Of a DNA stretch of 64,000 bases, positions 3,017-64,000 are shown in pieces; within the stretch, counting starts at the first letter, position 1; each line of letters begins with the position of its first letter. Made by a program: the position numbers and the translations under genes. The notes under the pieces are model-generated. The model was not told the origin of the DNA. It did no database searches and was given only the letters and a program-made list of their open reading frames with translations. Source of the DNA: a virus (taxonomy: Duplodnaviria; Heunggongvirae; Uroviricota; Caudoviricetes); IMG/VR virus record IMGVR_UViG_2526164631_000023; one strand, written 5' to 3'.

Positions 3017-3182
3017 TTACTCCCCTTGTTTAGTGCCAGAAGACACGCCAGTGCTGTTAAACAAGTATCCGACATACGCTGAACAGTTATTCAGCACGAT
3101 CGACGAATGCAACCAACGAAACGCACTGAATAACCAAAGAAACAGGGAGATTTGGGAAGGGAAGGGGGATCAAGGCTCCTGA
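2850..3182 (+). CDS. Rz1-like o-spanin lipoprotein, out-of-frame overlap with Rz and extending 166 bp past the Rz stop (alternative start 2871)
   Basis: Signal peptide with lipobox LSGC (MRCAVLGLTMCVCLMTLSGCSG); Pro-rich mature part; overlapped spanin architecture. Confidence 0.45.
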   Translation: MKSLALKMRCAVLGLTMCVCLMTLSGCSGNGQKPSTSVPVKITVEATSKPQANLIDYSPCLVPEDTPVLLNKYPTYAEQLFSTIDECNQRNALNNQRNREIWEGKGDQGS

Positions 3183-8043: not shown

Positions 8044-8080
8044 TTTATAACCCCCGCTAAATGATGCGGGGGAGAGAGGT

Positions 8081-8821
8081 TTGAATATGAAAAATTATAC
8101 TGCTGATCCTTTTATGCGTGCGATTTTCGGTTCTGGCTGCTTTGAAAGCGGTGATAAATCCACGCAGGACAATAATGATAACGCCATGCTGGAAAGCGCA
8201 GGACAGAAAGGAAAGGACACTCAACCAAAGCCCAAAGACGACATTGAAACCGCGATGATGGAAGCGGTTGAATCCCGTGCACAAGGTGATATGCGCAGCC
8301 TGGCAGCTTCCATGCTTGCTGGTTGGGTTGAAGATGGTGATCCGGAGGCTGACTCATTTGATGCATTAGCAATCACTATGGCTGGCCTGGCTGATATCGA
8401 TGAAGACACCGATTTCACCGATGAGCAAATCGATGCTTATAATGATGCACTCGCAGCTCTTGCTGATGCAGCTGTTGCGCTTGGCGCTGATCAGGATGAT
8501 GTAACCGAAATGATCGACGATGAAGATGACTCAGCTGCCGAACGTGTTTATGACGCTCTTTCCGAAAGCGACACCGACATGATGGAAACAGCTATTGCCA
8601 TTTACACCGTTGCTGGTGGTGATAGCGCAATGCTGGAAGCGGTACGTAAAAAAGTGGTTCGTGATGGCAAGGTAACCATCATCCGTAAACGCCCGCGTCC
8701 TCGCCGCATGACGTCATTGCAAAAACAGGCGCTGAAAAAAGCACGCCGCAAAGCACATACATCCGTAGCGAATATCAACCGCAAAAAATCAATGCGCATT
8801 CGCAAAAAACGCGGTTTGTAA
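8081..8821 (+). CDS. highly acidic protein with Arg/Lys-rich C-terminal tail
   Basis: 246 aa; D/E-rich body (DIDEDTDFTDEQIDAYNDALAALADAA...) then RKRPRPRRMTSLQKQALKKARRK. Confidence 0.4.
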   Translation: MNMKNYTADPFMRAIFGSGCFESGDKSTQDNNDNAMLESAGQKGKDTQPKPKDDIETAMMEAVESRAQGDMRSLAASMLAGWVEDGDPEADSFDALAITMAGLADIDEDTDFTDEQIDAYNDALAALADAAVALGADQDDVTEMIDDEDDSAAERVYDALSESDTDMMETAIAIYTVAGGDSAMLEAVRKKVVRDGKVTIIRKRPRPRRMTSLQKQALKKARRKAHTSVANINRKKSMRIRKKRGL

Positions 8822-8870
8822 GTGACATAGGCCGTCTGCAAAGGTGGCCTCTACCTGGGAGAAATAGCGT

Positions 8871-9461
8871 TTGATTTGCGGCGCGATAATGCCTGACGGA
8901 ATAAGTCCGTTAATGAAGGTTTATATCCTCTCTTCAGAGGATATGGTCGTCGGTTATATCGGTGAAGGATCTACCGCAGAACTGTCATCAATGTGGCAAT
9001 CACCATTTGAAAACCAGTCAGTAGGAGGTTTGCTTGGTGGTATTAGCGCTGCGGCTGGCTCTCTTGCAGATACGCTTCAGACCGCAACCGGCGTAACAAC
9101 AAAAACCCTCTTCAACTCAATGCTTGTTTGGGAAGGTCAGCAACCGCCTGAATTTAATCTGGTAATTGATTTCATGGCGACAACGAACGCGCAACTTGAA
9201 GTGAACGCAGCCATTACAGCATTGCTGAAGATGGAATCGCCGGAACTGAACAATGTAGCGCCATTCGGTCGTCGCCCGGAGACAGTAACGTTAAACATAG
9301 GTAGGAACATAGCCCTTACCGACGTTGTTATCAAAAGCGTGAGTTACCAACTGGACGCCCCACGCACACCGGAAGGCTATTTCACTCATAACACGGTAAC
9401 CCTGCAATGCAGCGGAAACACCTCGATTAACCGTAGCAACATATCATCTGTTTTTGTGTAG
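8871..9461 (+). CDS. tail-associated structural protein (start possibly at the internal ATG about 8913)
   Basis: ORF track; position between sheath and tube-like gene. Confidence 0.3.
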   Translation: MICGAIMPDGISPLMKVYILSSEDMVVGYIGEGSTAELSSMWQSPFENQSVGGLLGGISAAAGSLADTLQTATGVTTKTLFNSMLVWEGQQPPEFNLVIDFMATTNAQLEVNAAITALLKMESPELNNVAPFGRRPETVTLNIGRNIALTDVVIKSVSYQLDAPRTPEGYFTHNTVTLQCSGNTSINRSNISSVFV

Positions 9462-9469
9462 GAGTATTT

Positions 9470-9961
9470 ATGTCCGGTTTTGCAAATACAAAAGCCGATA
9501 TCGCTTTTCTGAAATCCCGGTTGAACAAAAACCTGGCAGCGGGCGAAAAACTTATTGGTTCAGAATTCTGGATGACTATTAAAGGTTACGAAAAACTATC
9601 TGTACTTGTTCGTACCACTCAGTTGCCGGAAATGACTCGCGAAGACGTGGAAGACTATGGTCCTGGCGGCATGAAGATCAACCAGCACGGGCCATTGCGT
9701 AACTCAGGTGAATTCCAGGTTACCTGCTCTGAAACCATCGAAGGGGATGTTCTGGCCGCCGTAAAACAAATGGTATATGGCAAAGAATATCTGGAAATTA
9801 CCTTACAGGCAGCGGCTGAATCCAATAGCGGTAACCATAAAGGTCTGATCCGCACATATTATCACTGCAAAGTGTATTCCGACGCAGTGGACTTCTCCAC
9901 CGAAGACGTAACAGCAGTCGTTAAGCCTTCCCTGCGTATTGTTTACAACTGGGTAGAGTGA
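9470..9961 (+). CDS. putative tail tube protein
   Basis: 163 aa; size and position after sheath; weak resemblance to myovirus tube proteins. Confidence 0.35.
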   Translation: MSGFANTKADIAFLKSRLNKNLAAGEKLIGSEFWMTIKGYEKLSVLVRTTQLPEMTREDVEDYGPGGMKINQHGPLRNSGEFQVTCSETIEGDVLAAVKQMVYGKEYLEITLQAAAESNSGNHKGLIRTYYHCKVYSDAVDFSTEDVTAVVKPSLRIVYNWVE

Positions 9962-10013
9962 TCTCTTTCCCGCCCTTGTGGCGGGAACTCCTTGTATTTG
10001 AGTTGTAGGTACG

Positions 10014-10565
10014 ATGACACCAACCGAATTATTAGAAAGCGTTAAAGCACGATTTAATCCACTGCTTGTGCGTGAAGAAGAAACGCTGAAAGCCTTCCTG
10101 ATCAAAGCTCTGACCACGTATCAGGACAGGGCAGGGGTAGTGAAAACGTTAAAACTTGAAAAAGCTGGTGGTACTGCAATCCCATTACCAGAAGATTATC
10201 TCTCTCTGGTTCATGTTACCGACAACAATGGCCTGTTGGTCTATTCGGATGAATTATCCGGATTTATTGAATTAGAGCTAACAGGTTCAGAGCGCTGGCC
10301 TTTTCGAATGCTGTATCTGGTTAATCTACACGACAGAAAGCTGGATGAATGGCAAGTGCCTCCTGCAATCATTGGAATGCTGGAGGAATATCTAGAGGCG
10401 CTTATCAATGTAAGAAATGTCGCCCGGCAGCGTAGAGCGTCCATCGACGGGAAATTTGACTACTCCGATCTGCCCGATGAAGCCACGCTATATGCCCGCG
10501 TGCAGGAGATTGAGGAAAAAATGTCCTCAAACCGGGCCATTATTCCGGGGGCTACCATTTTTTAA
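10014..10565 (+). CDS. hypothetical protein
   Basis: ORF track, 183 aa. Confidence 0.35.
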   Translation: MTPTELLESVKARFNPLLVREEETLKAFLIKALTTYQDRAGVVKTLKLEKAGGTAIPLPEDYLSLVHVTDNNGLLVYSDELSGFIELELTGSERWPFRMLYLVNLHDRKLDEWQVPPAIIGMLEEYLEALINVRNVARQRRASIDGKFDYSDLPDEATLYARVQEIEEKMSSNRAIIPGATIF

Positions 10566-10580
10566 CGCTGGAGGCGCAGA

Positions 10581-11288
10581 GTGAGTATTTTCAGCAGCGT
10601 TGGTAGAACGTTGACCACCGCATTGTCATTTAACACGAAATCATTCACCAGCAACCTCATTAGCGACATTCTTGATAAAGCCATATCAGGCGGCGGGGTA
10701 AGCGGGAATTACAGTAGCGATATTGCCTACGGGAAAAATATTGTTGCTGCCGCTATGCGTATCCGTTACGCCCAGGGGTGGCAGTGGACCGTTGAAGTGG
10801 ATGGCCTGAACGGCTTCGATATGTTCGTGAAGGATATCACCTACAGCAGTGGAAACATTGAGACAGAAAGCAAGGTGATCGGCAGCGTAGAATTCAGCAA
10901 GCCAACCTATGTTAGCGCCGGACCGGTCACTATGACCGTGAGGGATACCGAAGATGGCAAGATCATGGACTGGTTCAAAGAGCGTCGTTCTCGTGTAACA
11001 AATCCTGATGGAACAATAAACCTTCCTCCGGAATATCTGATGAAAATCCGTGTCTACCGGGTAACTCAGGACGGCGGAAAAGAACTGGAAGAAGAAATGC
11101 GCGTATTTCCTACACAACTTGGGGAAATCACTCGCTCACGTGATCAGGTGTCAGAGTTCTTGTCATACCCAATCACTTTCCAGAAATACACATCTGCAGG
11201 CTCAGGTGTTTCTGCTTTGGTCAACGGTGCCGCTGGCATGGCTACAAGTGCGTTAAAGGGGGCTATCAGTGGAGTGATCAAATTCTGA
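10581..11288 (+). CDS. hypothetical protein
   Basis: ORF track, 235 aa, RBS GGAGG upstream. Confidence 0.35.
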   Translation: MSIFSSVGRTLTTALSFNTKSFTSNLISDILDKAISGGGVSGNYSSDIAYGKNIVAAAMRIRYAQGWQWTVEVDGLNGFDMFVKDITYSSGNIETESKVIGSVEFSKPTYVSAGPVTMTVRDTEDGKIMDWFKERRSRVTNPDGTINLPPEYLMKIRVYRVTQDGGKELEEEMRVFPTQLGEITRSRDQVSEFLSYPITFQKYTSAGSGVSALVNGAAGMATSALKGAISGVIKF

Positions 11289-11300
11289 AATGCTTTAATT

Positions 11301-11522
11301 ATGTGTGCTGTAGGGAAAGGTTTACGTTAAATGTGTGCTGCCGGGAAACCCCATTGCTCAAGATGTGTTGTAGAGGGAATGGTAATGGCAACATGTGTGC
11401 TGGAGGGGAATTTCGCATGTAAAGAGCGTCATTTATCCCTCCAGCACACATCTGAAATAAGCAATCCTCTGAAATTCCCTCCACCACACATCCAGACATG
11501 AAACTATCCCTTCAGCACACAT
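11301..11522. repeat. incA-like RepA iteron array (about 7 copies, 4 direct and 3 inverted)
   Basis: 19-bp units ATGTGTGCTG(N)GGGAAA at about 11301, 11331, 11362, 11392 and CAGCACACAT-type inverted copies at about 11436, 11475, 11507; matches the P1 iteron consensus. Confidence 0.7.
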
Positions 11523-12386
11523 TTAATCTGTTGGTTTAAGTTTCGGATTCCGAGAGTGAACGATAATGAAGTTTTCACGACCTTGCTTTTCAATGGTGCA
11601 ATCGAGATAACCTATTGTTTTTAACTGGTCTATAGCTTTTTTTATCGTTCTGTTTTGCTCACTTACCGATGACATCAAGGCTAATCTTTCACGTATTCTG
11701 GCAAATGAAATAGGTATTGGACGTGCCGGGAGGCTTTCTATAAAGGTATATATGGCCTGGGCTGCTTCTTTTTTAGGTAAAGCGCGAAGTGCGTGTTGCT
11801 GTAGAAGCACCCGATAGTCTAGCTGGAAGATTTCCCATAACTTGGAATCAGCCTCCAGTTCAACGACATCTGTTTCAAAGTCAAAATATCCCGTTTTAAG
11901 CAGGCCAGTATTGTAGCTTCCACGAGCACTTTTCCCTCTTTTGAATGAGATGCCTTTGTTGCGTAACCGACCTAAAGAATCGTGGATCGTGTTTCTTAAT
12001 TTCCCATCAAGTCGCTTAGATGGAAATCCGCACGCCTTTGCAAATTCTTGAAAAGAAAGGCGAATTGTATTCGATGATAAGCCATACTTGCTAAATGAGT
12101 AGATTACCCCAATCCAGACTTTGAAATCAGTATCCATGTCCAAGCGAGGGCCAGTGATCTTGATGTTGTCGTAGCCTTCTGCTTGAGCTATTTCCAATTT
12201 GGAAAAAACAGATGATGCATCTATCTCGTTGTTTTCACCCTGTTTTTTAGTTGGTTTAGGGACGAAAACACCAAGCCGCATAAGTGCGACAGGTTGAACA
12301 GTATTGTTCGAATTAACTGTTAATTCTTTAGCCTTGCTTTCAATGTCAGCATAAAGAATATCAGAGATAAATGACTTATCCATCAA
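11523..12386 (-). CDS. repA: RepA replication initiator (P1 R-replicon type)
   Basis: 287 aa; MMDKSFISDILYADIESKAKELTVNSNNTVQPVALMRLGVFVPKP... recalled as near-identical to P1 RepA; flanked by iterons on both sides. Confidence 0.85.
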   Translation of the reverse strand: MMDKSFISDILYADIESKAKELTVNSNNTVQPVALMRLGVFVPKPTKKQGENNEIDASSVFSKLEIAQAEGYDNIKITGPRLDMDTDFKVWIGVIYSFSKYGLSSNTIRLSFQEFAKACGFPSKRLDGKLRNTIHDSLGRLRNKGISFKRGKSARGSYNTGLLKTGYFDFETDVVELEADSKLWEIFQLDYRVLLQQHALRALPKKEAAQAIYTFIESLPARPIPISFARIRERLALMSSVSEQNRTIKKAIDQLKTIGYLDCTIEKQGRENFIIVHSRNPKLKPTD

Positions 12387-19260: not shown

Positions 19261-20106
19261 ATGAAAGATAATTGGCTTAAGGAACGATTAACTAAAGTAA
19301 AACAGGATTCACATCTCTGGAGTGCATTTATAGACGCTTTACAGGATGTCTGGAATGAGGCAGTAGAACCAATATTAACAAGAATAAGTAACAGAAAATC
19401 CTTCTTCACTATGGACAGTGAGGACATGGATGCCCGCATTGCTGAATACGGGCGTTTTTTCGTTATCACTGAAAAAGATAAGGACCGTAGGCCAATGCTG
19501 CTGGCGCAACGTTTAGATGAAGTGCACTTTAAAGGCACTATCTTGCCTATTGAGCAGACATTCTGGCGTGAATTCGGTTGTATTCCTGTTAGTTGGGAAC
19601 CGCTGTATGCACCTGTAAATATAGAAAAACACCCCTATGGTTCATATTTTGCGACCGAAATAGAAATACCTACGGCACAGGCTCAATTCGGTGAGTTCTT
19701 CCTGACATCAAGGGGGCTGGTCGTTGTTGATCAGAACAAGCTATATCGCTCATATGGAGAGCAGGATAAAGAAGCCGCTGTGCAGAAATTGTTATCTGAC
19801 TTCGAAACAGTAATAGCCCCTTTGTTGCCATTGCATATTGTTTTTGATGGCGTCTCGTTTCGGCTTAGTGCTGTATTCCCTGAAGTGGCAGAAATACTAA
19901 ATTGCTTGTCTACGGATGTTTCGGTAATTGAAGGTGTTTATGTTACTGAGAGTATGGCTGATATGCTATCCCGTAGTGATACCTCCTGCCAGGTAAACAA
20001 TATTTCTCTTAACGCCATACCGAACAGAACGGCAGAAAAGCAATTACATCTTGATGTAACCCCACTCGATGCGTGGCCTTTGGATTACCACCTTCAACCT
20101 GTTTAA
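19261..20106 (+). CDS. baseplate/tail protein
   Basis: 281 aa; followed by a hairpin terminator at about 20110-20135. Confidence 0.3.
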   Translation: MKDNWLKERLTKVKQDSHLWSAFIDALQDVWNEAVEPILTRISNRKSFFTMDSEDMDARIAEYGRFFVITEKDKDRRPMLLAQRLDEVHFKGTILPIEQTFWREFGCIPVSWEPLYAPVNIEKHPYGSYFATEIEIPTAQAQFGEFFLTSRGLVVVDQNKLYRSYGEQDKEAAVQKLLSDFETVIAPLLPLHIVFDGVSFRLSAVFPEVAEILNCLSTDVSVIEGVYVTESMADMLSRSDTSCQVNNISLNAIPNRTAEKQLHLDVTPLDAWPLDYHLQPV

Positions 20107-20200
20107 TAATTCTTCCCCCAAATGCGGGGGAAGAACAACGGAAATCACAAACTGAGCATACTCTCCTTTGGTTCATTGCTTATGAAGGGGCTATGTTCGT

Positions 20201-20647
20201 ATGGCTGAAAATTTAAAGGCAAGAGATGGTAACCGCCTGTATAAGGCGCAATTGCTTTCCTACTATTATTCACGCCGCGCTGAGTCGGCGATCGGCAAAG
20301 GTGCGCGTTTTGTTATCTCTAAGGCGTATTGGTGCAAATCTAGTCTGGTAACTGCTAATGGTGCAGGAGGCTGGAATATAGCGGACATTCCACTCGATTT
20401 TAAATTGAGAAACGCTCAGCAGTTTGCTGTGTCCGATCTGATATTGTCCAGTGTGGATGGGATTATCACTATCAATGCAGCCTTCCCTCAAGAAAGAATG
20501 CCGGATAACACGCCTTACGACTTTAACACGCTTGTGCTTGTTGATGCTGAGGAACAGGCTTTTGCTGTGCTTTGCACCCAGCAAGACACCCTCTATAAAG
20601 GTAAACGTTACAGTATTCTCATGACAATCGAGCAAGTTGAGGGTTGA
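20201..20647 (+). CDS. tail-fibre-associated protein (P1 R-like position)
   Basis: 148 aa; stop overlaps the start of the fibre gene. Confidence 0.35.
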   Translation: MAENLKARDGNRLYKAQLLSYYYSRRAESAIGKGARFVISKAYWCKSSLVTANGAGGWNIADIPLDFKLRNAQQFAVSDLILSSVDGIITINAAFPQERMPDNTPYDFNTLVLVDAEEQAFAVLCTQQDTLYKGKRYSILMTIEQVEG

Positions 20648-23600
20648 TTATGGGTGCTGATAAAACGAACAACATAATGACACTATCCTCTGGTGTCTCA
20701 CAGCCGTTGCTTGCTGATGTTCAATATTTCGAACTCTATAGTAGTTCGGCTCTTAACAGAAAACTTAAAAATATTGTTTTGCCGGGCTTTTACTGTGGAT
20801 TTGAACCAGTTCCCGGCGCAGGGTTGAGAGTCCGTATAACTTCTGAAAACTCAGAAGGTAAAGGGGCTGCTTCAGTAGATGTAAATAATGTTCAGATATC
20901 CGTTCAGCAAATAGAAGATGTGACTGTCTCGGTAAAGGCTGGGGCTACCAACATTATTGTGCTAGAAGCCAATTTTGAACATGGTGTAAAAACGACACAG
21001 GTAGAGAGCGCATCTTCTGTCAGTGCTGCAAGAATTTACGCGCGTACGGACAATACTATTGGGCAGAATCAAATTGAATTATGTCGAGTTATCGTGCCTA
21101 ACGGCGCAACGGCTGTGACGAAAGAAATGATTGTGCTTAAATACCGGGTTAACCGTGCTGTTGGTGTCGAATTCTCTAATGAAATAAGCAGTACAGAAGA
21201 AAGAAAAGCGGCTACACCTCTGGCTGTCAAAACTCTCCATGATTTGGTTGATACAAAAGCTCCGCTCGATAGTCCACATCTGTCAGGTACGCCGACAGCA
21301 CCTACGGCCTCACAAGGCACAAATAGCACGCAGATTGCAAATACAGCCTTTGTTAAGGCAGCTATAACTGCACTTATCAACGGTGCACCTGGCACACTGG
21401 ATACGCTGAAAGAAATAGCGGCTGCGATCAATAACGACCCGAATTTCAGCACAACTATCAACAATGCCCTGGCTCTCAAAGCGCCTTTGGCAAGCCCGGC
21501 GTTCACAGGTACGCCGACAGCACCTACGGCCTCACAAGGCACAAATAGCACGCAGATTGCTACGACCGCTTATGTAAGAGCTGCCATATCCGCATTGGTT
21601 GGTTCATCACCAGAAGCTCTTGATACCCTGAATGAGCTTGCCGCAGCACTTGGTAATGACCCGAACTTTGCGACAACAATGACAAATGCGCTGGCAGGCA
21701 AACAGCCTCTGGATGCAACTTTAACCGCTCTTGCTTCCCTTGCGACTGGTGCAAACAAACTGCCTTATTTCACGGGTAAGGATACGGTAGCTCAGACTGA
21801 TTTAACGTCAGTCGGTCGCGATATTCTGGCTAAAACAAGCATACTGGCCGTTATCCAATACCTTGGTTTAAGAGAACTCGGTACCAGCGGTGAAAAGATC
21901 CCCCTGTTAAGCACAGCTAACACATGGAGTGCGCGCCAGACTTTCAACGGCGGGATCACCGGGGCGCTGACAGGGAACGCCGACACCGCGACGAAATTGA
22001 AAACCAAAAGGTCGCTTCAAGTTGACCTCCAAAGTGATAACGCCATCGACTTTGATGGTTCATCAAATGCTCTTCTGGGCATAAAAGGTATTTTACCAAT
22101 TACTCATGGGGGATTAGGTGCATCCAGCGTCTCTGGAGGGCGTACTAATCTTGGATTAGGTGTTGCGGACGTCCCCCAATTTAAGGGTATCAATCTTGTT
22201 AACTCAACAGACGCTGATTTAGCCGCGTCAGGGATTGTAAGTGGTTATCTGAATAATTCAGCTGGGGTACAGAGGAGTCGTTTCAGAATTTATTCAGAGA
22301 TAAGGAGTGGCAACCGCTCATGGCTGACGTTACATCTACAATCTGATACCAACACCAATAAATATGCCGGATTAGACATTGACGGTAACTTTCTGATTAC
22401 CGGAGATAGCAAATGCCGAGCATTAGAACCAACTGATGCAGCGTTAACAAGAAAAAATATTGATGTTTACAGCAAAGCCGAAGTAGACCTTAAAAAAGGG
22501 ATGAAATTCACCAGAGTCAATGCTCCTTCTGGAGCTGAAGAGGGTAAATTCTATCCTGTAGTCATCAAGAGATCTGCAACGAGCAATGGTGAACTTGCTT
22601 CTCGGGTTATTATTTCCACTGCGTCGCGCCAAGCTGCACATCGCATGAACAACTGCGAATTCAATGGTTTTGTGATGCCTGCTGGTTGGAGTGACAGAGG
22701 GCGGTACGCATACGGGATGTTCTGGCAATATCAGGATGCAGAACGGGCGATTCATTCTATTGCGATGAGCAATAAAGACGATGAAGTTAGCTCAGTTTTT
22801 TATATTGAAGGCGGAGCATTTCCAGTATGCGTTCTTGTGGAGGAGGGGCTTTCTGTTGTTGTCCCTACAACGGATTATATTGTTGGACAAACCACATACA
22901 AATGGGGGGCTACCAACCCTAAAGCTGAATGTATAGCTGCCGACATAATTATTGATTTTAGCAATGGTCGTGGTTTCTATAGCTCTGGAAACCTCAATGG
23001 TAATGCTGCAACAGCAACTAAATTACAGACCGCCAGAACAATCAACGGAGTAACCTTCGATGGCACTACTGATATTTCGTTGACACCAGAGAACATTGGC
23101 GCGCTGTCTCTATCCGGAGGCACATTATTAGGAGGTCTGACAGCTCCATTACTTACCACTAAAAGCGATCTTATTTTTAGTAGCCATACAAGCCGTCATA
23201 TCCGCTTTACATATACGAAAAATGACGGCACAACACTAACTGATGGGTACATATTTAAAGATGGCGTCGATAACCCTAACAGACGACCAGGCATCCGGAT
23301 AAATTGTGCTGCGCCGAATAAAGAAACCGGCAATGGTACTAATTCAGGTGATTGGATATTCGGTGAAGATGGCATTTTTACCATGCCGGGTGGCACTGTT
23401 CTTCGGGGAGGAATCAATAGCAATGGCGTGCCGCAAAGTGAGTATAAACATGACATGCTCACGTCAGTTGTTGACGATGCAAAAATGTATCTGCGACGTT
23501 TCCGCTCCAGCACAGGTGCAAGCATATGGCATGAAACAATAGAGAATAATGTTTATCGCTTATGCACAGGAACAACTGACGCTCAGGAAGAGTTAGTCTT

Positions 23601-24969
23601 GAGGACTGGTTCCTATGCGAAATTCGCTGGCGAGATTATTTCCAAATCGGCGAATGGTCTGCGCATTGTCTATGGCAACTATGGATTCTTTATCCGAAAC
23701 GATGGTTCAAGCACATACTTCATGTTGACCGATTCGGGTAACAGCCTAGGAACCTATAATAGGTTAAGGCCGCTTATCATTAACAATGCCAATGGTGCTG
23801 TTACGATCGGTAATGGACTCAATGTTACTGGCGGCATCAATGGTAGTTTGAACGGTAATGCTGCAACTGCAACAAAACTGCAAACAGCACGCACAATAGG
23901 CGGTGTGTCATTCGATGGCTCCGCCAATATCAACCTGCCGGGTGTAAACATTGCTGGTAACCAGAACACAACCGGTAATGCAGCGACAGCGACCAAGTTG
24001 CAGACAGCATGTACTATCAACGGCGTCTCGTTTGATGGTTCTAAAGATATTGAACTTAACCCACGGTCTATAGGCACGATCAACTCCACAACAATGTCTT
24101 TTAGTGGTGGTGCTGGATGGTTCAAGCTAGCAACTGTAACCATGCCACAGGCCAGTTCCGTGGTTTACATAAGCCTGATTGGTGGTGCAGGGTATAACGT
24201 TGGCTCCCCGCATCAAGCAGGCATCTCTGAGCTGGTTCTGCGTGCCGGAAATGGAAATCCAAAAGGTATTACTGGTGCATTATGGCGACGGACCTCGGTT
24301 GGATTTACTAATTTTGCATGGGTGAATACATCTGGTGATACCTATGATGTTTATGTTGAAATAGGTAATTACGCCACAGGTGTTAATATTCAGTGGGATT
24401 ATACCAGTAACGCCAGCGTAACGATTCATACATCACCAACTTATACAGCGAATAAACCAACAGGCCTGACAGATGGAACTGTATATGTAATTTACAGTTC
24501 GCACATTAAACCGACTGCTGCTGATGTTGGGGCGTTGTCATTATCTGGAGGTCAATTGAATGGTGCACTGGGCATCGGAACATCCAGTGCTCTTGGCGGT
24601 AACTCGATTGTTTTGGGTGATAATGACACGGGCTTTAAACAAAATGGCGACGGTAATCTGGACGTTTATGCTAATAACGTCCATGTTATGCGCTTTGTCT
24701 CCGGCAGCATTCAAAGTAATAAAACCATAAATATTACAGGGCGTGTTAACCCCTCGGATTACGGTAACTTTGATTCCCGTTATGTGAAAGATGTTCGCCT
24801 GGGTACGCGTGTTGTTCAATTGATGGCGCGTGGTGGTCGTTATGAAAAAGCCGGACACGCAATTACCGGATTAAGAATCATTGGTGAAGTAGATGGCGAT
24901 GATGAAGCCATCTTCAGACCAATACAAAAATACATCAATGGCACATGGTATAACGTCGCACAGGTGTAA
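20644..24969 (+). CDS. tail fibre protein (constant part Sc codons 1-407 fused to the currently expressed variable part Sv)
   Basis: 1441 aa; repeated fibre motifs NGNAATATKLQTARTINGV(S/T)FDG, ALSLSGG; C-terminus FRPIQKYINGTWYNVAQV parallels the Sv' C-terminus. Confidence 0.8.
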   Translation: MIMGADKTNNIMTLSSGVSQPLLADVQYFELYSSSALNRKLKNIVLPGFYCGFEPVPGAGLRVRITSENSEGKGAASVDVNNVQISVQQIEDVTVSVKAGATNIIVLEANFEHGVKTTQVESASSVSAARIYARTDNTIGQNQIELCRVIVPNGATAVTKEMIVLKYRVNRAVGVEFSNEISSTEERKAATPLAVKTLHDLVDTKAPLDSPHLSGTPTAPTASQGTNSTQIANTAFVKAAITALINGAPGTLDTLKEIAAAINNDPNFSTTINNALALKAPLASPAFTGTPTAPTASQGTNSTQIATTAYVRAAISALVGSSPEALDTLNELAAALGNDPNFATTMTNALAGKQPLDATLTALASLATGANKLPYFTGKDTVAQTDLTSVGRDILAKTSILAVIQYLGLRELGTSGEKIPLLSTANTWSARQTFNGGITGALTGNADTATKLKTKRSLQVDLQSDNAIDFDGSSNALLGIKGILPITHGGLGASSVSGGRTNLGLGVADVPQFKGINLVNSTDADLAASGIVSGYLNNSAGVQRSRFRIYSEIRSGNRSWLTLHLQSDTNTNKYAGLDIDGNFLITGDSKCRALEPTDAALTRKNIDVYSKAEVDLKKGMKFTRVNAPSGAEEGKFYPVVIKRSATSNGELASRVIISTASRQAAHRMNNCEFNGFVMPAGWSDRGRYAYGMFWQYQDAERAIHSIAMSNKDDEVSSVFYIEGGAFPVCVLVEEGLSVVVPTTDYIVGQTTYKWGATNPKAECIAADIIIDFSNGRGFYSSGNLNGNAATATKLQTARTINGVTFDGTTDISLTPENIGALSLSGGTLLGGLTAPLLTTKSDLIFSSHTSRHIRFTYTKNDGTTLTDGYIFKDGVDNPNRRPGIRINCAAPNKETGNGTNSGDWIFGEDGIFTMPGGTVLRGGINSNGVPQSEYKHDMLTSVVDDAKMYLRRFRSSTGASIWHETIENNVYRLCTGTTDAQEELVLRTGSYAKFAGEIISKSANGLRIVYGNYGFFIRNDGSSTYFMLTDSGNSLGTYNRLRPLIINNANGAVTIGNGLNVTGGINGSLNGNAATATKLQTARTIGGVSFDGSANINLPGVNIAGNQNTTGNAATATKLQTACTINGVSFDGSKDIELNPRSIGTINSTTMSFSGGAGWFKLATVTMPQASSVVYISLIGGAGYNVGSPHQAGISELVLRAGNGNPKGITGALWRRTSVGFTNFAWVNTSGDTYDVYVEIGNYATGVNIQWDYTSNASVTIHTSPTYTANKPTGLTDGTVYVIYSSHIKPTAADVGALSLSGGQLNGALGIGTSSALGGNSIVLGDNDTGFKQNGDGNLDVYANNVHVMRFVSGSIQSNKTINITGRVNPSDYGNFDSRYVKDVRLGTRVVQLMARGGRYEKAGHAITGLRIIGEVDGDDEAIFRPIQKYINGTWYNVAQV
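21851..21876 (+). promoter_or_regulatory. Hin/Gin/Cin-type crossover site 1 inside the fibre gene (core TT at 21863-21864)
   Basis: TTATCCAATACC TT GGTTTAAGAGAA versus gix/hix consensus TTATCNAAAACC NN GGTTTNNGATAA. Confidence 0.6.
23627..23865. repeat. left copy of an about 237-bp inverted repeat within the fibre distal modules
   Basis: Reverse complement of 26652-26890 with only about 2 mismatches; encodes EIISKSANGLRIVYGNYGFFIRNDGSSTYFMLTDSGNSLGTYNRLRPLIINNANGAVTIGNGLNVTGGINGSLNGN in both genes. Confidence 0.8.
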
Positions 24970-24972
24970 ATT

Positions 24973-25500
24973 ATGCAGCATTTAAAAAATATTAAGTCAG
25001 GAAATCCAAAAACAAAAGAGCAATATCAGCTAACAAAGAATTTTGATGTTATCTGGTTATATACAGAAGACGGTAAAAACTGGTATGAGGAAGTAAATAA
25101 CTTTCAGGACGACACCATAAAGATTGTTTACGATGAAAATAATATTATTGTCGCCATCACCAAAGATGCATCCACGCTTAACCCTGAAGGTTTTAGCGTC
25201 GTTGAGGTTCCCGATATTACAGCCAACCGCCGCGCTGATGATTCAGGAAAGTGGATGTTTAAGGATGGAGCTGTAGTTAAACGGATTTATACGGCAGACG
25301 AGCAACAACAACAGGCCGAATCACAAAAGGCCGCATTGCTTTCCGAAGCTGAATCAGTCATCCAACCGCTGGAACGCGCTGTCAGGCTGAATATGGCAAC
25401 AGACGAGGAACGCACACGACTGGAAGCATGGGAACGCTACAGTGTTCTGGTCAGCCGTGCGGATACGGCAAATCCTGAATGGCCACAAAAACCAGAGTAA
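24973..25500 (+). CDS. tail fibre assembly chaperone (U/Tfa)
   Basis: 175 aa; [24 protein letters not shown]; paralogous to the inverted copy 25529..26062. Confidence 0.75.
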
Positions 25501-25505
25501 AAATT

Positions 25506-25525
25506 AAGGCCCGATAGCGGGCCTT
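25506..25525. terminator. bidirectional hairpin between the convergent chaperone genes
   Basis: AAGGCCCGATAGCGGGCCTT. Confidence 0.5.
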
Positions 25526-25528
25526 CTC

Positions 25529-26062
25529 TCATTCTGGTTGTTCGGGAAACGTTACTGGCAGGCCGGAAGTGTCTGTAGATTCGACTTTCTGCGCATAGAG
25601 CATCCACTCGGTTAATTTTTGTTTATTCTCGTCGGAAATGATGCCCAGCCGTAGCTGTGAGTCCCATAGCTGGGTTTTATCCCTGACAAGTTGCAACAGG
25701 CTTTGCTTTTCATTTTCCGCTTGTTGCCTCTGCTCTTCCTCGGTATAAGTTCGCTTTATCACTACGCCATCTTTGAACATCCATTTCCCCGAAATATCAG
25801 CCCGGCGATTTGCTGTAATATCAGGTAATTCAACGACGCTTGCACCCTCTGGATTAATTGCTGAAACATCCTTTTCAATACAAATAATAACGCCGTTATG
25901 GTCATAGACCATTTTCAAAGTGTCTGGCTGGAAATTCTTTTGTTCCTCATACCAGTTTTTTCCATCATCTGAATAAAGCCATTTGATGTTAAATTGCTTT
26001 GTTAGCTGGTATTGCTCTTTTGTTTTAGGGTTGCCAGCAGTAATGTTTTTTAAGTGCATCAT
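25529..26062 (-). CDS. alternative tail fibre assembly chaperone (U')
   Basis: 177 aa; [24 protein letters not shown]. Confidence 0.75.
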   Translation of the reverse strand: MMHLKNITAGNPKTKEQYQLTKQFNIKWLYSDDGKNWYEEQKNFQPDTLKMVYDHNGVIICIEKDVSAINPEGASVVELPDITANRRADISGKWMFKDGVVIKRTYTEEEQRQQAENEKQSLLQLVRDKTQLWDSQLRLGIISDENKQKLTEWMLYAQKVESTDTSGLPVTFPEQPE

Positions 26063-26064
26063 CG

Positions 26065-27735
26065 TTAAATACTCCCCGCGTTATACCACGTCCCATTAAT
26101 GCAATACTGAATTGGCCTTGCCTGAGTTGTATCAATTAATTCATCACGGTTTCCGTTAACTGAACCCGTAACGACATAACCTGACCTGTCAGACCAGCCG
26201 GGACCATTCCATGTCTGAACAGATGACAGACCGCCAAGGCGAATACCTGTAATAAACCTTGAGTTACATTCTGCCTGCGTGTATGCACCAACATCTCCCG
26301 CAGAGGGTTTGCGGGTCGTGGTGTAAAACTCTGACCAGTCAGCCTCAAATCCATAACCATCACGCGCTGAACGATAAAAGATACCGCCGTTTTTATAATT
26401 CACGCGGAACTGTACAGCAGGGCAACTCCCCGCATTCATATTAAAGTGGAGGATTAATGTCGATGCGCCACCAATGTTTGCGTTATAGACCCCGCTATTC
26501 CAGTTCCAGCCAACAGCTTTATCATTTGCGACCCTGCTTCCTGTTTGCCCTAGAGCAAACGCACCTACATGACTTGCTTTTAATGTGATATCGGAGGAAC
26601 CATCAAAAGCCACGCCACTTATTTTTCTGGCAGTTTGTAACTTTGTAGCCGTAGATGCATTACCGTTCAAACTACCATTGATGCCGCCAGTAACATTGAG
26701 TCCATTACCGATCGTAACAGCACCATTGGCATTGTTAATGATAAGCGGCCTTAACCTATTATAGGTTCCTAGGCTGTTACCCGAATCGGTCAACATGAAG
26801 TATGTGCTTGAACCATCGTTTCGGATAAAGAATCCATAGTTGCCATAGACAATACGAAGACCATTCGCCGATTTGGAAATAATCTCGCCAGCAGCAGTTA
26901 ATCCGCCAGTTAACGCTCCTCCAGATAGTGGTAAAGCTCCGACATCAGCCGCAGTAGGCTTGTTTTTAGTGTTATACGCTCTGCGCCATCCTGGTGAATA
27001 ACTTGTGCCATTAGACACATAGATAAATTCAGCATTAGTGAGTGCGCCAGATACACTTGTCATCGTTGCCGTTGTTATTCGAATGGTGTAATTGTTGGTA
27101 TTATTGCTGAATACTTCTATCACAGCACCCGCCAGTGGAATAATGCCACAACCAGTTTCACTGTCTGGTATGGATGCACTATTTGCATACGCCCAAGCAC
27201 AACGAGCGAACCATGCTTTCGTATTGAATGCCCCGTTATTTTGCAACAAAGTAACTAACTGGGCTGTCGTTATTGACTCACCGTTATTACCTGTTGTTAA
27301 CCAACCAGTAGGAGATGCCGGGCAACCAATATTTGCTGGTGACAGTGAAATATTCGCAGAACCGTCAAATGAAACCCCATTAATGGTACGTGCTGTTTGT
27401 AATGTCGTGGCAGACGCCGCATTTCCTGTTGTGTTCTGGTTGCCCGTTGTATTTACGCCCGGTATGGAGTCTTTCGATGTATAGACCTGTGCCCACTCAG
27501 ACCATGCCGCACCTGTGTAATCTCTTCGGGAGCGAATGAAAACTGGCGCATGTGCACCGCTCGTACCACTCCAGCCAATAAGCAACTCGCCCTCACCAGC
27601 AGCACTCGCACCTTTCATGTGCAATACGTTGCCATACGTGGTCGGGTAGCTATTGTTGTACGCCTCGTACATTTGAATGCCAGCAGCGCCTTGAGTAGAG
27701 CCGCTTAACGCCGTAACTCGGCCACGAGATACCAA
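26065..27735 (-). CDS. alternative tail fibre distal segment Sv' (no ATG, preceded by in-frame TAA; silent in the present orientation)
   Basis: 556-aa ORF opening at TTG 27735-27733; C-terminus RPIQYCINGTWYNAGSI; fibre motifs; shares the 237-bp inverted repeat with the expressed fibre gene. Confidence 0.7.
   Translation of the reverse strand: MVSRGRVTALSGSTQGAAGIQMYEAYNNSYPTTYGNVLHMKGASAAGEGELLIGWSGTSGAHAPVFIRSRRDYTGAAWSEWAQVYTSKDSIPGVNTTGNQNTTGNAASATTLQTARTINGVSFDGSANISLSPANIGCPASPTGWLTTGNNGESITTAQLVTLLQNNGAFNTKAWFARCAWAYANSASIPDSETGCGIIPLAGAVIEVFSNNTNNYTIRITTATMTSVSGALTNAEFIYVSNGTSYSPGWRRAYNTKNKPTAADVGALPLSGGALTGGLTAAGEIISKSANGLRIVYGNYGFFIRNDGSSTYFMLTDSGNSLGTYNRLRPLIINNANGAVTIGNGLNVTGGINGSLNGNASTATKLQTARKISGVAFDGSSDITLKASHVGAFALGQTGSRVANDKAVGWNWNSGVYNANIGGASTLILHFNMNAGSCPAVQFRVNYKNGGIFYRSARDGYGFEADWSEFYTTTRKPSAGDVGAYTQAECNSRFITGIRLGGLSSVQTWNGPGWSDRSGYVVTGSVNGNRDELIDTTQARPIQYCINGTWYNAGSI
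26652..26890. repeat. right copy of the about 237-bp inverted repeat
   Basis: See 23627-23865. Confidence 0.8.
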
Positions 27736-27759
27736 TGTATTAATGTTGGTTTAAGAGAA
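27734..27759 (+). promoter_or_regulatory. crossover site A (core TT at 27746-27747), same orientation as site 1
   Basis: AATGTATTAATG TT GGTTTAAGAGAA; right half identical to site 1, left half degenerate. Confidence 0.5.
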
Positions 27760-28053
27760 CTCGGTACCAGCGGTGAAAAGATCCCCCTGTTGAGTACGGC
27801 TAACACATGGAGTGCACGCCAGACTTTCAACGGCGGGATCACCGGGGCGCTGACAGGGAATGCCGACACCGCGACGAAATTGAAAACAGCACGCACGATT
27901 GGCGGTGTGGTATTTGATGGCTCGGCCAATATCAACCTTCCAGGTGTAAATACAACAGGTAACCAGAACACCACCGGGAATGCTGCTACCGCGACAAAAC
28001 TTGCGACGGCAAGAAACATCAACGGTGTTAAGTTTGATGGCTCAGGCGATATC
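27748..28053 (+). other. 306-bp invertible mini-segment carrying 102 codons of the common Sv N-terminal region, currently facing away from Sv'
   Basis: 27748-27878 is about 95% identical to 21865-21995 of the fibre gene; exactly 102 codons in frame between the cores of sites A and B. Confidence 0.6.
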
Positions 28054-28067
28054 AAGGTTTAGGATTG
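28042..28067 (+). promoter_or_regulatory. crossover site B (core AA at 28054-28055), inverted relative to sites 1 and A; overlaps the invertase stop codon
   Basis: TCAGGCGATATC AA GGTTTAGGATTG; right half matches GGTTTNNGAT; the hybrid site predicted after A x B inversion (TTCTCTTAAACC AA GGTTTAGGATTG) resembles hixL. Confidence 0.5.
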
Positions 28068-28619
28068 AAATGATGACGCCGGAAACTTCTTATAAAGCGT
28101 GGAAACAGCCACATCATAGATGATTGCAACCTGCTTACGGGGGATGCCCTTCTCCAGCAATCGCCGCATTTGCTGCCATGTTTCTTCTTGGTATTTAGGC
28201 CGACGCCCACCTATACGACCTTCTGCGCGAGCTGCATCAAGTCCAGCGCGTGTACGTTCAACGATAAGCTCGCGTTCCATTTCTGCCAGCGCCCCCATTA
28301 CGTGAAAGAAAAAGCGCCCCATTGGTGTACTGGTGTCGATGGAGTCAGTGAGACTCCGGAAGTTAATGCCTTTGTCACGAAGCTCTTCCACCAGCACAAC
28401 CAAGTGACGCATGCTGCGCCCAAGACGATCTAACTTCCATACGACTAGGGTGTCACCTCTGGAAAGCATACGGAGAACCTTTTTTAACCCAGGGCGTTCA
28501 GCCTTTTTGCCGCTCGCCTTATCCTCAAAAATTAGCTCACATCCTGCGCTTTCAAGGGCGTTTCGTTGTAAAGCTGTGTTTTGGTCATTAGTTGATACGC
28601 GAATGTATCCAATAAGCAT
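28059..28619 (-). CDS. cin: serine DNA invertase of the Hin/Gin/Cin family
   Basis: MLIGYIRVSTNDQNTALQRNALESAGCELIFEDKASG...; 186 aa from ATG at 28619-28617 with GGGGG RBS; C-terminal HTH. Confidence 0.9.
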   Translation of the reverse strand: MLIGYIRVSTNDQNTALQRNALESAGCELIFEDKASGKKAERPGLKKVLRMLSRGDTLVVWKLDRLGRSMRHLVVLVEELRDKGINFRSLTDSIDTSTPMGRFFFHVMGALAEMERELIVERTRAGLDAARAEGRIGGRRPKYQEETWQQMRRLLEKGIPRKQVAIIYDVAVSTLYKKFPASSFQS

Positions 28620-28723
28620 ATGTCCCCCTTGTATGTTAAGGAGGGAGATTTTAGAAGATGTCCTGTAAGGAAATAACAAACTGACTAAGTTAGTGGCGCA
28701 TTAGATGTTATTTCTGGAGGGGT

Positions 28724-29050
28724 ATGTTTGCAGATTATGAAAATCTGGCTGTAGTAGTCATAACATCCCTACTAAGTGGAACCGGCGTATTCCTTCTCGG
28801 AGTTAGAGACGGGCGCATTTCTGCGTCCCTGCTCAATCTTGCGAGTGAATTGTTTACTGCGGTAACAGCCGGGCTTGCGGGGTATGGGGTGGCGGTTAGC
28901 CAAGAATGGCCTGAAGGTATCATTTTCTGCGTTGTTCTGATTGCCAGTAACAACGGTAGTGAAATTTTACAGGGCTTAAAGTCCAGAGCTAGTAACGTCT
29001 TGAATCTCTTAAGCGTAATAGCGAATGGGGGAAAAGGTGGAGAGAAATAA
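28724..29050 (+). CDS. holin-like small membrane protein (LydA-like position)
   Basis: 108 aa with about 3 hydrophobic helices; first gene after the invertase in a lysis/dar-type operon. Confidence 0.4.
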   Translation: MFADYENLAVVVITSLLSGTGVFLLGVRDGRISASLLNLASELFTAVTAGLAGYGVAVSQEWPEGIIFCVVLIASNNGSEILQGLKSRASNVLNLLSVIANGGKGGEK

Positions 29051-29496
29051 TGGGTAACTTTGGAAATTATTTCATTTTTATCATGGCATTTGTTGCCATC
29101 ATTGACCGTTTCATTTTTCGTCGCAAGAGTGTTGAGATTTTGAGTATTGGTGACGCTGTAGTGAAAGAATCCGCTATAGCATTTCCTGTTTCGCTACGTG
29201 TTAAGCGAAGCTGGGTCAGCAATGCTCAAATCGAATATTGGTTGCAAGACCTGAAAAATCCATCTGTGGTTATTTCAGGGAAAACGCGACCAGTTGACGC
29301 CTCAAAACGCGGTGAGAGAGAAGAGTATTTGCTCATCGATACGAAATATCTTGAGCCAACGAAGTGGGATCTGAAAGTCACATTGACTAACGGTAACTGT
29401 CGACTGAATCCGCTTTATCGCATTTTCCCTATCAATGACTGCATAGAGCGCCAGTTTACGATCGAAAAGCGTGAAGGAGACTGGGATGTCAAATAA
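29050..29496 (+). CDS. membrane-anchored protein (LydB-like position)
   Basis: 148 aa; N-terminal TM helix; start overlaps the upstream stop. Confidence 0.3.
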   Translation: MGNFGNYFIFIMAFVAIIDRFIFRRKSVEILSIGDAVVKESAIAFPVSLRVKRSWVSNAQIEYWLQDLKNPSVVISGKTRPVDASKRGEREEYLLIDTKYLEPTKWDLKVTLTNGNCRLNPLYRIFPINDCIERQFTIEKREGDWDVK

Positions 29497-30106
29497 GAAT
29501 AATTATGTTCTTCTTAATTATGATGAGTTAAACGAAAAGGGGCTGTCAAAACTCGTCAAAGAAATCAGCAAAGGTGGTTACAAGATAGCGAGGGTGATCC
29601 CTGCAAGTAATGGCAGGAAGAAAGATGGGATCATGACGCGCACGTTTACCCTTATTGGTATTGATGAACAGACAATGGAAGTTCAGGTTAACGATACCGG
29701 TGATATATCTGGGATCAAACTGAATGGTAAAACAGTACCGTTCAAGCCAGTAAAAACAATGTCGGCTTTGGGGCAATCTCTTGCGGCTTTATTTAATCGC
29801 GGAGCAACTTCTTTCCAGAAGTCATTAGCTCGAAAACTTGCTCGTGCAGCAAAAAATATTGATGACGGAAATAAGAAGCGGCAGGGAGTTAAATCTAACG
29901 CTCAGAAATTAGCTGAAGCGAAAGAATCACGTGATGCACTCCGTGAAGATATCGCTAATGCTAACGACAAACTGTCTAAACTCCAGAGCAAGTCAGACAA
30001 AGTAATGCAAGATACGGGTAATGTTAAAGCTGCCTTGTCTCAGGAAGTAGCTAAGACACGTGCTCTTAAAGAAGAAATCGCGCGCCTGGAGGATGAGCAT
30101 GATTAA
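29471..30106 (+). CDS. coiled-coil hypothetical protein
   Basis: ORF track; likely start MSNKNNYVLL at about 29486. Confidence 0.35.
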   Translation: MKETGMSNKNNYVLLNYDELNEKGLSKLVKEISKGGYKIARVIPASNGRKKDGIMTRTFTLIGIDEQTMEVQVNDTGDISGIKLNGKTVPFKPVKTMSALGQSLAALFNRGATSFQKSLARKLARAAKNIDDGNKKRQGVKSNAQKLAEAKESRDALREDIANANDKLSKLQSKSDKVMQDTGNVKAALSQEVAKTRALKEEIARLEDEHD

Positions 30107-32035
30107 CAATCCTTTACGAATTAATATTCAGTCTACTTTTGCTGATACGATCCCCGGCTATATGCCAAGTCGCTGGTCTTCAGAAGAATTAAGCGAAGAT
30201 GACCTGATTTTTGAGGCGGCGACCTTAGAAGATATTGAGCTTGCCTATATGGGCAATGAAATTCTGGTTGTGTCTGACGAAGCTATGTTTGAGTCCATAA
30301 CTACAACCAGAATTCGGTTAGCTCAAACAATGCGAGCTTTCGTCCGTGCGCTGAATCGTGGCCTGAATGGTACGAATATTATGGCAGGGACTGATGAAGC
30401 CGGGACCGATGAAAATGGACGTAATTGTATTGGTGGTGCGATTATCGGTCGTGTACGTCGGGTAGCTAATATCCCTGTTTTGACCGCGCAGATACCGCTT
30501 ACTGACGGGCAGAGTACAAGCATAATTTTCCACTCTCCAACAGCTGACGGGGCAAAAATAAAGAGTAACGACGAGCTTGTTGCATTTCAGTTTTTACTTA
30601 ATAAGCGTAACGTAACTCACGTTGTCGCCCCGATTGGTGGGAGAGATGTTTCTTTAAGCCAGGTATGCCAGGCGCTATCTAATTTGATTGAGCGTAACAG
30701 CGAAAAATTTAAGAAGGCAAAAGAGCGCCAGGACAAAATGAAGGCAGATATTGAGAGTTATCTCAATGAAGCAGATAAACTGGCAGAAGAACGGTCAATA
30801 ATGATTGATCAGGTGGACGTTGCGCAACGTGGGCTGACTGAAAAGCGTGCTGCTCTTACGGAGATGCAAAAAAACTTGATGCCCAGAAAGCCATCAACGA
30901 GGAATTACAAGCAAAACGCGATAAATTGTTGTCTGCTAAAGGTGAAAAAACGAAAGAACGAGCGTTTAGCGACCAGCTGCGACATGTAAAACATAATCTT
31001 GCCATTGACGGAAAAACAGTGCTGGATAATGGCGCTGAAGTTAATTATGTCACGTCCGGCAGTGACAATTTCGTTACGATAGTAGCACCTGAAGGTAAAT
31101 TCAGTATTGATGCCAGTGCTGTCAAAGGAGGCAGTTTGGCAGATGCTGCAACCAAATTACTTAAAGCCTACCGAGAGCATAACGCAGATAAATATAAAGT
31201 TGATGTGTTACCAGGCCAGCAGGAAGACCCCGAACCACCACAGACAGACCCCGAGACGAACCCAGTATCACAACCAGAGAGCCAGGATGTAGGTAAATAC
31301 CACTATGCACTTCAATCTCGCCCGGCTGGTGTTGGTGCTGTGCCGGATGGAAATAAAGCCGTGCTTGATCGTCCTGACCAGGCTGATCAGTATTACGAAT
31401 ATGCTCGTCACGGTATCATTACGTATGACCGTAAACTGACAGATGAAGAAGTCAGCCAGTACGAGTTGCTCTATCTTCCTGATGAAGATGAGCTGAAAGA
31501 TTTTGCAGGCCAATTGGTTGTGTCCAGCATGTCGAAACATATTGATGGCTATGTAGACCTGTTTGGCAGTGACCTGAAAACATTCAAGGCGCAAGTGAAA
31601 ATTCTTTTCCGCAAAGCGTTTCCAAACGTGGCGTATCCACTTGGTGATGGGGAGAACCTTTTCATTATGGACGTATATAACGCCCTTCAAAATCATTCAA
31701 ACGAAGTAACGCCAGAGCCTGAATTAGCACCTGTAGTTGAGCCAGAATCACACCCACAAACAGCACCAGAGCAACAGCCAACGCCGGAAGACGCTGAAGA
31801 AGCGGCAACTGAAGCTGATCAGGAAGCAGATAAAGCACTGGAGTACCTAAAATCCGTCCCGGTGCAGTTTACATCTCGCGATCTGACGGTAATCAGTGCC
31901 GAACTTGACCATGTGCAGGAAGCTGCAAACGCTCTTATCAGTGCTGGTCGATACGACGAGAACGAATCAACGGTTGGCGCAGCAGTTGACTACCTGATCA
32001 ACATTCTGGCTGAAATTCAGCAGGGAGGTGCTTAA
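30093..32035 (+). CDS. virion/anti-restriction-operon protein split by a -1 frame change at A_AAA_AAC (30869-30875); zero-frame product about 298 aa, shifted product about 647 aa
   Basis: ORFs 30060..30989 and 30926..32035 overlap; coherent coiled-coil sequence continues across the A7 run only in the -1 frame (…TEMQKK LDAQKAINEELQAKRDKLL…). Confidence 0.45.
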
Positions 32036-61260: not shown

Positions 61261-63974
<2,714 letters not shown>

Positions 63975-64000
63975 ACATGTATTCCCGGTGAAAAAGACAA

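Follow-up and report, generated by a model that had tools for sequence, protein, structure and literature searches.

We report that the tail-fibre inversion locus in a 64,000-nucleotide (nt) stretch of the virus record IMGVR_UViG_2526164631_000023 (Caudoviricetes; the whole stretch is hereafter called the window) is a canonical Cin/cix C-segment, of the type with two sites, in a P1/D6-like plasmid prophage of Escherichia coli O111:H2 DEC12A, and that one of its two crossover sites, cixL, is present there only as two separated halves. The explanation that we prefer, with a probability of roughly 80%, is that one illegitimate inversion by the serine invertase Cin, between cixL and a quasi-site (Q) inside the silent fibre gene segment Sv', split cixL and flipped 306 bp, and that this rare accident was fixed in one E. 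coli strain. The locus is no new kind of switch; what it shows is a mis-recombination, rare and fixed, in a switch that is well known.

In the nomenclature of P1, cixR is the site in the fibre gene S and cixL is the site at the 3' end of cin. Invertases of the Din family act in an assembly with Fis and the recombinational enhancer, cut both sites at the central dinucleotide, the cuts being staggered by 2 bp, and religate the ends after rotation; the core dinucleotides have to match. In the Cin system the enhancer lies inside cin itself, cixR and cixL are cut at the central TT/AA dinucleotide, and normal inversion swaps the Sv-U and Sv'-U' tips onto the constant segment Sc. In the window the cixR-cixL invertible segment is about 6.2 kb, and the opposed fibre C-terminal segments Sv-U (plus strand) and U'-Sv' (minus strand), with a chaperone in each, share one constant N-terminal segment.

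One full crossover site and one split site

The first-pass annotation of the window had proposed three 26-bp crossover sites. The three 26-mers do exist, namely site 1 at 21851–21876 inside S (core TT, 21863–21864), site A at 27734–27759 and site B at 28042–28067, and the junctions fall exactly on the 2-bp cores, with exactly 306 bp between those of A and B, as had been counted. Site B and the invertase stop codon (TTA, 28059–28061) overlap, again as described. Alignment to known sites gave a divided answer: site 1, which reads TTATCCAATACC TT GGTTTAAGAGAA, is identical to cixR of P1 and to the D6 site and is called cixR below, while A and B match in one half only. Their designation as crossover sites is thus right for one cix-like half each and wrong for the other; A joins a non-cix half from Sv' (AATGTATTAATG) through the core TT to the inner half of cixL (GGTTTAAGAGAA), and B joins another non-cix Sv' half (TCAGGCGATATC) through the core AA to the outer half of cixL (GGTTTAGGATTG).

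We scored these sequences with a half-site weight matrix built from the crossover sites in the compared sequences together with the EC958 table (PMC4134206). cixR received 16.9 for the left and 18.3 for the right half (total 35.1); this is the highest score of any 26-mer in the window, and cixR is the sole full-scoring site among the three. Site A received −23.4 and 18.3 (total −5.1), and site B −10.4 and 12.0 (total 1.6). The good halves of A and B are top-ranked half-sites in the 64 kb, far above chance, while their poor halves stand at the 52nd and the 9th percentile, respectively, among all half-sites of the window and lack the AAACC motif entirely.

When the good halves are joined (18.3 and 12.0; total 30.3), they give exactly the cixL found in P1, D6 and four plasmids that we compared in detail, namely NZ_CP066033.1 (L001), NZ_CP047013.1 (L002), L029 and NZ_CP124376.1 (L030); this canonical cixL, CAATCCTAAACC TT GGTTTAAGAGAA, was the same in every relative examined. 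When the poor halves are joined, they give Q, AATGTATTAATG TT GATATCGCCTGA, with −23.4 and −10.4 (total −33.8), a score equalled or exceeded by about 17% of all 26-mers of the window. Q and cixL agree at 10 of 26 positions in an alignment made by eye, and their only common stretch is TTG, that is, the central TT and the adjacent G. The cix half-site strings are TTCTCTTAAACC, CAATCCTAAACC and TTATCCAATACC, and the junction strings of the restored cixL and of Q are TTCTCTTAAACCAAGGTTTAGGATTG and GGCGATATCAACATTAATACATT, respectively. Because the good halves reassemble to cixL and the poor halves to Q, the window contains one intact site and one site cut in two, not three evolved sites; three or more full crossover sites were not found in the window, only cixR matching the consensus in both halves. 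Judged from their sequences, A and B are not full 26-bp crossover sites; between them they hold the two halves of a single canonical cixL.

The 306-bp mini-segment between them (27748–28053) corresponds to codons 1–102 of Sv' but is at present on the plus strand, the wrong one for Sv'. It had been noticed that the remaining Sv' ORF (open reading frame; 26065–27735, minus strand) lacks an ATG and has an in-frame TAA ahead of it, and we agree that the mini-segment is its detached N-terminus; re-inversion between A and B in silico indeed gives a perfect cixL and an intact Sv'. The mini-segment was also rightly said to repeat the start of the variable region, because 27746–27887 is a 142-nt direct copy of 21863–22004 (repeat family D3, plus strand, opening Sv) with 96% identity. 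The same copies are inverted in NZ_CP066033.1, NZ_CP047013.1, D6 and P1. RefSeq annotates the mini-segment as a tail-fibre pseudogene fragment and calls only an internal 535-aa Sv' ORF (26065–27672).

Comparison with P1 and related plasmids

The window region matches phage D6, P1 and hundreds of P1-like E. coli plasmids, and 19680–30874 is identical to plasmid pDEC12A-1 of E. coli O111:H2 strain 12A (NZ_CP077480.1). The likeness to the Cin/cix systems of P1 and D6 extends to the invertase (184/187), the enhancer inside cin and the identical cixR, and P1 has the same gene order, Sc, then Sv-U opposed to U'-Sv', then cin, with cixL overlapping the 3' end of cin. Judged by identity, a Fis-dependent enhancer should be present in cis at the same position within cin as in P1. 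The locus differs from that of P1 in four points: its cixL has been divided between two hybrid half-sites that are 306 bp from each other; its terminal repeat, at present direct, measures 142 bp, while the inverted repeats of the P1 C-segment are 0.62 kb; the fibre is longer (1439 aa) with other shaft and tip modules; and there is an extra internal 307-bp inverted repeat.

The most informative relative is NZ_CP066033.1 of strain FDAARGOS_1059, hereafter the sister plasmid, which has 97,453 bp, as does pDEC12A-1, and shows zero differences from the window outside the recombined repeats in the aligned blocks. Its order is Sc, cixR, mini-segment (plus strand), Q, Y1', R-M-R', X', cixL and cin; both sites have the canonical sequence, and an intact Sv' continues Sc in frame. 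The mini-segment of the window is 100% identical to 2764–3073 of this locus (L001), where it stands in frame between Sc and Y1'. All breakpoints between the window and the sister plasmid lie on predicted cores, and the C-segment as a whole is inverted in the sister plasmid, so both orientations are seen among near-identical molecules. The idea that the two plasmids are one culture caught in two states was examined and rejected, because the insertion sequence IS100 is in different genes in the two, which makes them sister lineages.

The unflipped silent form was also found. NZ_CP047013.1 has the module order of the window with the mini-segment unflipped, and its canonical silent junction, Y1-Q-mini'-cixL-cin, is present in four other plasmids too, which places the window one inversion, between cixL and Q, from a natural arrangement. 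P1, D6, the sister plasmid, NZ_CP047013.1, L029 and L030 have exactly two full sites each.

We also searched for the flipped state itself. The hybrid site was found in 0 of 31 compared loci outside the window's own record, and the flipped junctions A and B in 0 of the 72,556 plasmids of PLSDB and in no contig of IMG/VR; in JGI metagenomes, where junction B only was searched, none was found. Of the complete E. coli genomes, which numbered 5,426, only that of the source strain has the flipped junctions. The intact Q junction, by comparison, is present in 149 of these 5,426 genomes, in 18 IMG/VR contigs and in 8 JGI metagenome contigs. The exact Q 23-mer is widespread, and this lineage accordingly does not carry an improved site. 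A search for the reciprocal flip, between Q and cixR with Sv' in the expressed position, found none. Multiple isomers of the flip were not seen in the relatives, the flipped junctions being confined to the source strain.

These results bear on the proposal of the first-pass annotation that the locus is a programmed nested three-site switch, with the 306-bp mini-segment acting as a gate in the manner of Min of p15B or a shufflon. Several of its observations are sound. The junctions lie exactly at cores, A and B each keep one strong half-site, and the two-step path reconstructed in silico does yield, next to a perfect cixL, an in-frame fibre of 1069 aa with the joint GVKFDGSGDI-NINT-LVSRGRV; the predicted direct inversion between sites 1 and B gives, as stated, ...QYL-DIA-stop and a product of 410 aa. 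Moreover, the predicted fusion of Sc through the mini-segment to Sv' (Y1') is real in the near-identical sister plasmid, but it stands there in a plain two-site arrangement. Against a programmed gate, the consensus halves of A and B make exactly one cixL, the unflipped partner Q is non-cix and looks like random sequence, P1, D6 and the examined relatives have two sites, and the flip was not found outside the source strain though Sv' and Q are widespread. The mini-segment also brings no alternative coding segment: an in-frame alternative was not found in it, since it amounts to codons 1–102 of Sv' and reads DIA-stop in its other orientation. We consider a programmed three-site gate quite improbable and do not retain it.

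The locus can also be compared with the known multi-site systems. Min of plasmid p15B, reportedly described by Sandmeier et al. in 1990 as a multiple-inversion system, is similar in that a P1-related plasmid, a Din-family invertase, more than two junctions in a fibre gene and nested or overlapping segments are involved. The mix sites of Min, six in number, are full 26-bp sites, and each of them borders alternative 3' gene segments, whereas the present locus has one full site and two half-sites, adds no coding alternative and has no isomers among its relatives. The R64 shufflon is similar in that multiple inversions vary the C-terminus of an adhesin-type protein; it uses the tyrosine recombinase Rci on 19-bp sfx repeats at seven sites, and both enzyme family and sites are unrelated to those of this locus.

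Some relatives are arranged differently. In the P1-like plasmids NZ_CP062905.1 (L006) and NZ_CP196313.1 (L007), the same sequence of mini-segment, Q and Y1 is inside a fixed 1339-aa fibre (6400–11800 of the compared locus); an invertase is lacking, and the chaperone gene is followed by one for serine acetyltransferase. In pAVS0578-B (NZ_CP124376.1, L030; 2174–9404), three fibre-tip sets were found, one of which bears the annotation of a fragment with an incomplete N-terminus, together with only the two cix sites mentioned above, and this C-segment looks like a remnant of module accretion.

Reality and persistence of the flipped state

The flipped state is real and stable, which follows from three observations: the same diagnostic ORF occurs on three contigs, assemblies that differ elsewhere agree on it, and the breakpoint at Q is in unique sequence. 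A flipped mini-segment is the only state in which the truncated Sv' ORF of 535 aa can be called, the annotated Sv' coding sequence reaching into the mini-segment in NZ_CP047013.1 and L029. This ORF was found on three contigs of 50–200 kb and corresponds to EHX19865.1 from the 2012 DEC12A draft, to MGD3069329.1 and to WP_000272710.1. The assembly of the window differs from NZ_CP077480.1 and nevertheless has the same C-segment arrangement.

An assembly artefact, that is, a mis-join made from mixed C-segment isomers, has to be considered here, because invertible regions with inverted repeats are often mis-assembled and a related NCTC assembly, in a 699,698-bp contig, seems to hold two isomers. 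The sequence at Q, though, is free of repeats that might misdirect assembly, TTG being all that the two breakpoints have in common, and an error of this kind would have had to recur on the three large contigs, the 2012 draft included, and in an assembly that differs from NZ_CP077480.1 elsewhere. We therefore give an artefact almost no credence.

The possibility that the window is a byte-identical copy of NZ_CP077480.1 was checked and rejected, because the two differ by one homopolymer indel at 30875 and in the last 307 nt. The indel is in a darA-like head gene, with A7 in the window and A8 in NZ_CP077480.1, and is probably a sequencing error in one of the assemblies. The last 307 nt (63694–64000), which follow IS100, match neither pDEC12A-1 nor the sister plasmid, indicating that the window comes from another assembly in which IS100 was joined to different DNA; a contig chimera at the repeated insertion sequence, or a cointegrate, is a possible cause.

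Probable origin by inversion at a quasi-site

According to our preferred explanation, the starting state would have been a silent Sv' adjoining cin. Cin, or another Din invertase acting in trans, would have paired cixL with Q, located 306 bp inside Sv', and inversion of the 306 bp between them would have produced the hybrid sites A and B with one consensus half each. The sequences agree with this in detail: A and B are exact reciprocal products of an exchange between cixL and Q with no base gained or lost, the segments matching the sister plasmid at 100% identity as far as the cores, and Q, poorly related to cix as it is, has the same central dinucleotide TT. Cin, or another Din invertase, is the probable agent because one breakpoint coincides to the base with the cixL core, the exchange is reciprocal, TT is shared, and an intact cin with its enhancer is adjacent.

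These points also separate a Cin event from an invertase-independent inversion, for example by replication template switching or a microhomology-mediated rearrangement at TTG/CAA. The 3-bp junction homology and the lack of cix features in Q are what such a process would leave. It would not account for a breakpoint that coincides with the 2-bp core of cixL beside an intact cin and enhancer, chance coincidence with a core being very unlikely in a 97-kb plasmid, nor for a perfectly conservative exchange, and we regard it as very improbable.

Recombination of Cin at quasi-sites, with the central dinucleotide deciding, was reportedly described by Iida and Hiestand-Nauer in 1987, and the events studied in the Arber laboratory are said to have been selected in laboratory constructs. 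Such quasi-cix recombination is rare and conservative and makes hybrid sites. The likeness to this work is close, a bona fide cix site recombining in both cases with a poorly related sequence that shares its central dinucleotide, and the locus fits the known category of secondary-site (quasi-site) invertase products. It differs from the laboratory events in that the product is fixed in a wild plasmid prophage, and in that the quasi-site is inside the invertible segment, 306 bp from cixL, and the inversion inactivates the alternative fibre gene.

The consequences for the prophage can be read from the arrangement. The first 102 codons of Sv' are reversed and Sv' is headless, and the 142-bp terminal inverted repeat has become direct. 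The expressed S (1439 aa) and the chaperone U are unaffected, so the prophage can still make its current fibre. The alternative host-range fibre is currently unavailable to it, and an ordinary inversion would yield fibre-less or truncated-fibre particles: inversion between cixR and B would give the 410-aa truncated S, and only inversion between A and B restores the normal switch.

Persistence across independent assemblies suggests that the hybrid sites recombine slowly. If, on the other hand, A, B and cixR recombined appreciably, the locus would be a nascent multi-site system with four or more isomers, including the truncated-fibre state, and would represent a naturally fixed intermediate on the way from a Cin-type switch to multi-site systems such as Min. 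Each hybrid has one top-scoring half-site and a compatible core, and natural sites with one weak half are able to invert: PMC4134206 reports this for the 3' crossover site of EC958 Phi2, and the outer half of cixL itself scores only 12.0. Since three assemblies of the lineage are in the same state and the weak halves of A and B lack AAACC, we hold appreciable activity to be possible but doubtful.

Several points weigh against our preferred explanation and should be kept in mind. Many relatives with an intact Q lack cin (L006–L008), so the informative denominator is well below 149; the elements identified as having both Cin and this Sv' number at least 6. Q resembles cix less than expected of a quasi-site. 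The authorship of Cin would follow from the cixL-core breakpoint and the shared TT, and another Din invertase in trans would be equally compatible with these. The path is ambiguous, as an inversion between Q and cixR in the other orientation of the C-segment, followed by one between a hybrid and a canonical site, would give the same product and would imply active hybrid sites. Low-frequency cycling of isomers may also take place in DEC12A cultures.

Events at secondary sites have been suggested to give rise to new gene fusions and to multi-site inversion systems, and most documented cases come from laboratory constructs. The present locus would be a clear instance from nature in which an invertase used a secondary site. 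It is also useful for annotation, because the two entries beside cin, a "hypothetical protein" and a "tail fibre pseudogene fragment", together make up a single Sv' gene.

Internal inverted repeat within the fibre genes

A second layer of rearrangement was found inside the C-segment. The 307-bp inverted repeat I1, consisting of R (23626–23932, plus strand) and R' (26586–26892, minus strand) with 92% complementarity, is in frame in both fibre genes. Compared with the sister plasmid, the window has a pattern of single-nucleotide differences that locates a crossover in a 197-bp identical stretch, between positions 39 and 237 of the repeat; by this crossover each N-terminal shaft module receives the tip and chaperone cassette of the other. 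Both shaft/tip combinations are natural, Y1'-R-tip1 occurring in 62 E. coli genomes and X-R-tip1 in 2. The NCTC assembly mentioned above encodes SQD00268.1 (Sc-X-R-tip2, 1267 aa) and SQD00378.1 (silent X-R-tip1, 822 aa) on its one 699,698-bp contig, which suggests that two isomeric plasmid copies were assembled together.

No crossover site was found at the boundaries of R. The sole cix-like 26-mer inside it, TTATCCGAAACG AT GGTTCAAGCACA at 23690–23715 (and 26803–26828 in R'), is weak, with half scores of 6.2 and −6.1 and a palindromic core AT; it lies within the identical stretch and ranks about 12th of 64,000. Homologous recombination is the simplest cause of the exchange between R and R', and this 26-mer could be a secondary Cin site behind it.

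Genes and minor repeats of the locus

The expressed fibre gene S (20650–24969, plus strand, 1439 aa) was assigned from the ORF list and translation, the RefSeq coding sequence WP_000500552.1 and the Pfam domains Phage_fiber_2 and Gp34_trimer. It is composed of the constant Sc (20650–21864), the N-module X (21865–23625), the repeat R and tip 1 (23933–24969). The tail-fibre assembly chaperones U for tip 1 (24973–25500, plus strand) and U' for tip 2 (25529–26062, minus strand) were each recognized by ORF, annotation and the Pfam domain Caudo_TAP. The decapitated body of Sv' (26065–27745, minus strand) consists of tip 2 (26065–26585), R' and the Y1 shaft (26893–27745). The invertase gene cin (28059–28619, minus strand) encodes 186 aa with the Pfam domains Resolvase and HTH_7, and its identity to P1 Cin is 184 of 187 aligned positions when the stop is included. 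The putative recombinational enhancer (28530–28601, minus strand) is in the 5' part of cin and was assigned by homology, 68 of its 72 nt being equal to the annotated P1 enhancer.

An 80-nt motif that encodes (N/T)GNAATATKLQTARTINGV(S/T)FDGSxx occurs in five copies (22996–23075, 23851–23930, 23971–24050, 27853–27932 and 27973–28052), and Q follows directly after the last of these. It represents a recurrent unit of the fibre shaft and is a likely substrate for mosaic exchange. In the constant Sc, an 89-nt direct repeat (21284–21372 and 21506–21594; 222-nt spacing, 85% identity) is the counterpart of the repeated elements b1 and b2 annotated in S of P1.

Outside the C-segment, IS100 (IS21 family; 61741–63693) interrupts a gene of the DUF2829/Tad2-like (Thoeris anti-defence) type, with the target-site duplication GGTGG in NZ_CP077480.1. 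In the sister plasmid this Tad2-like gene is intact and IS100 is instead in the darA-like head gene, at the position corresponding to 31502–31506 of the window, with the duplication GCAAA; these independent insertions explain the equal lengths of 97,453 bp. Finally, pDEC12A-1 carries, in a part outside the window (L040, 1973–3634), a full-length gene for glutamine--tRNA ligase (glnS), which is an unusual cargo for a P1-like element.

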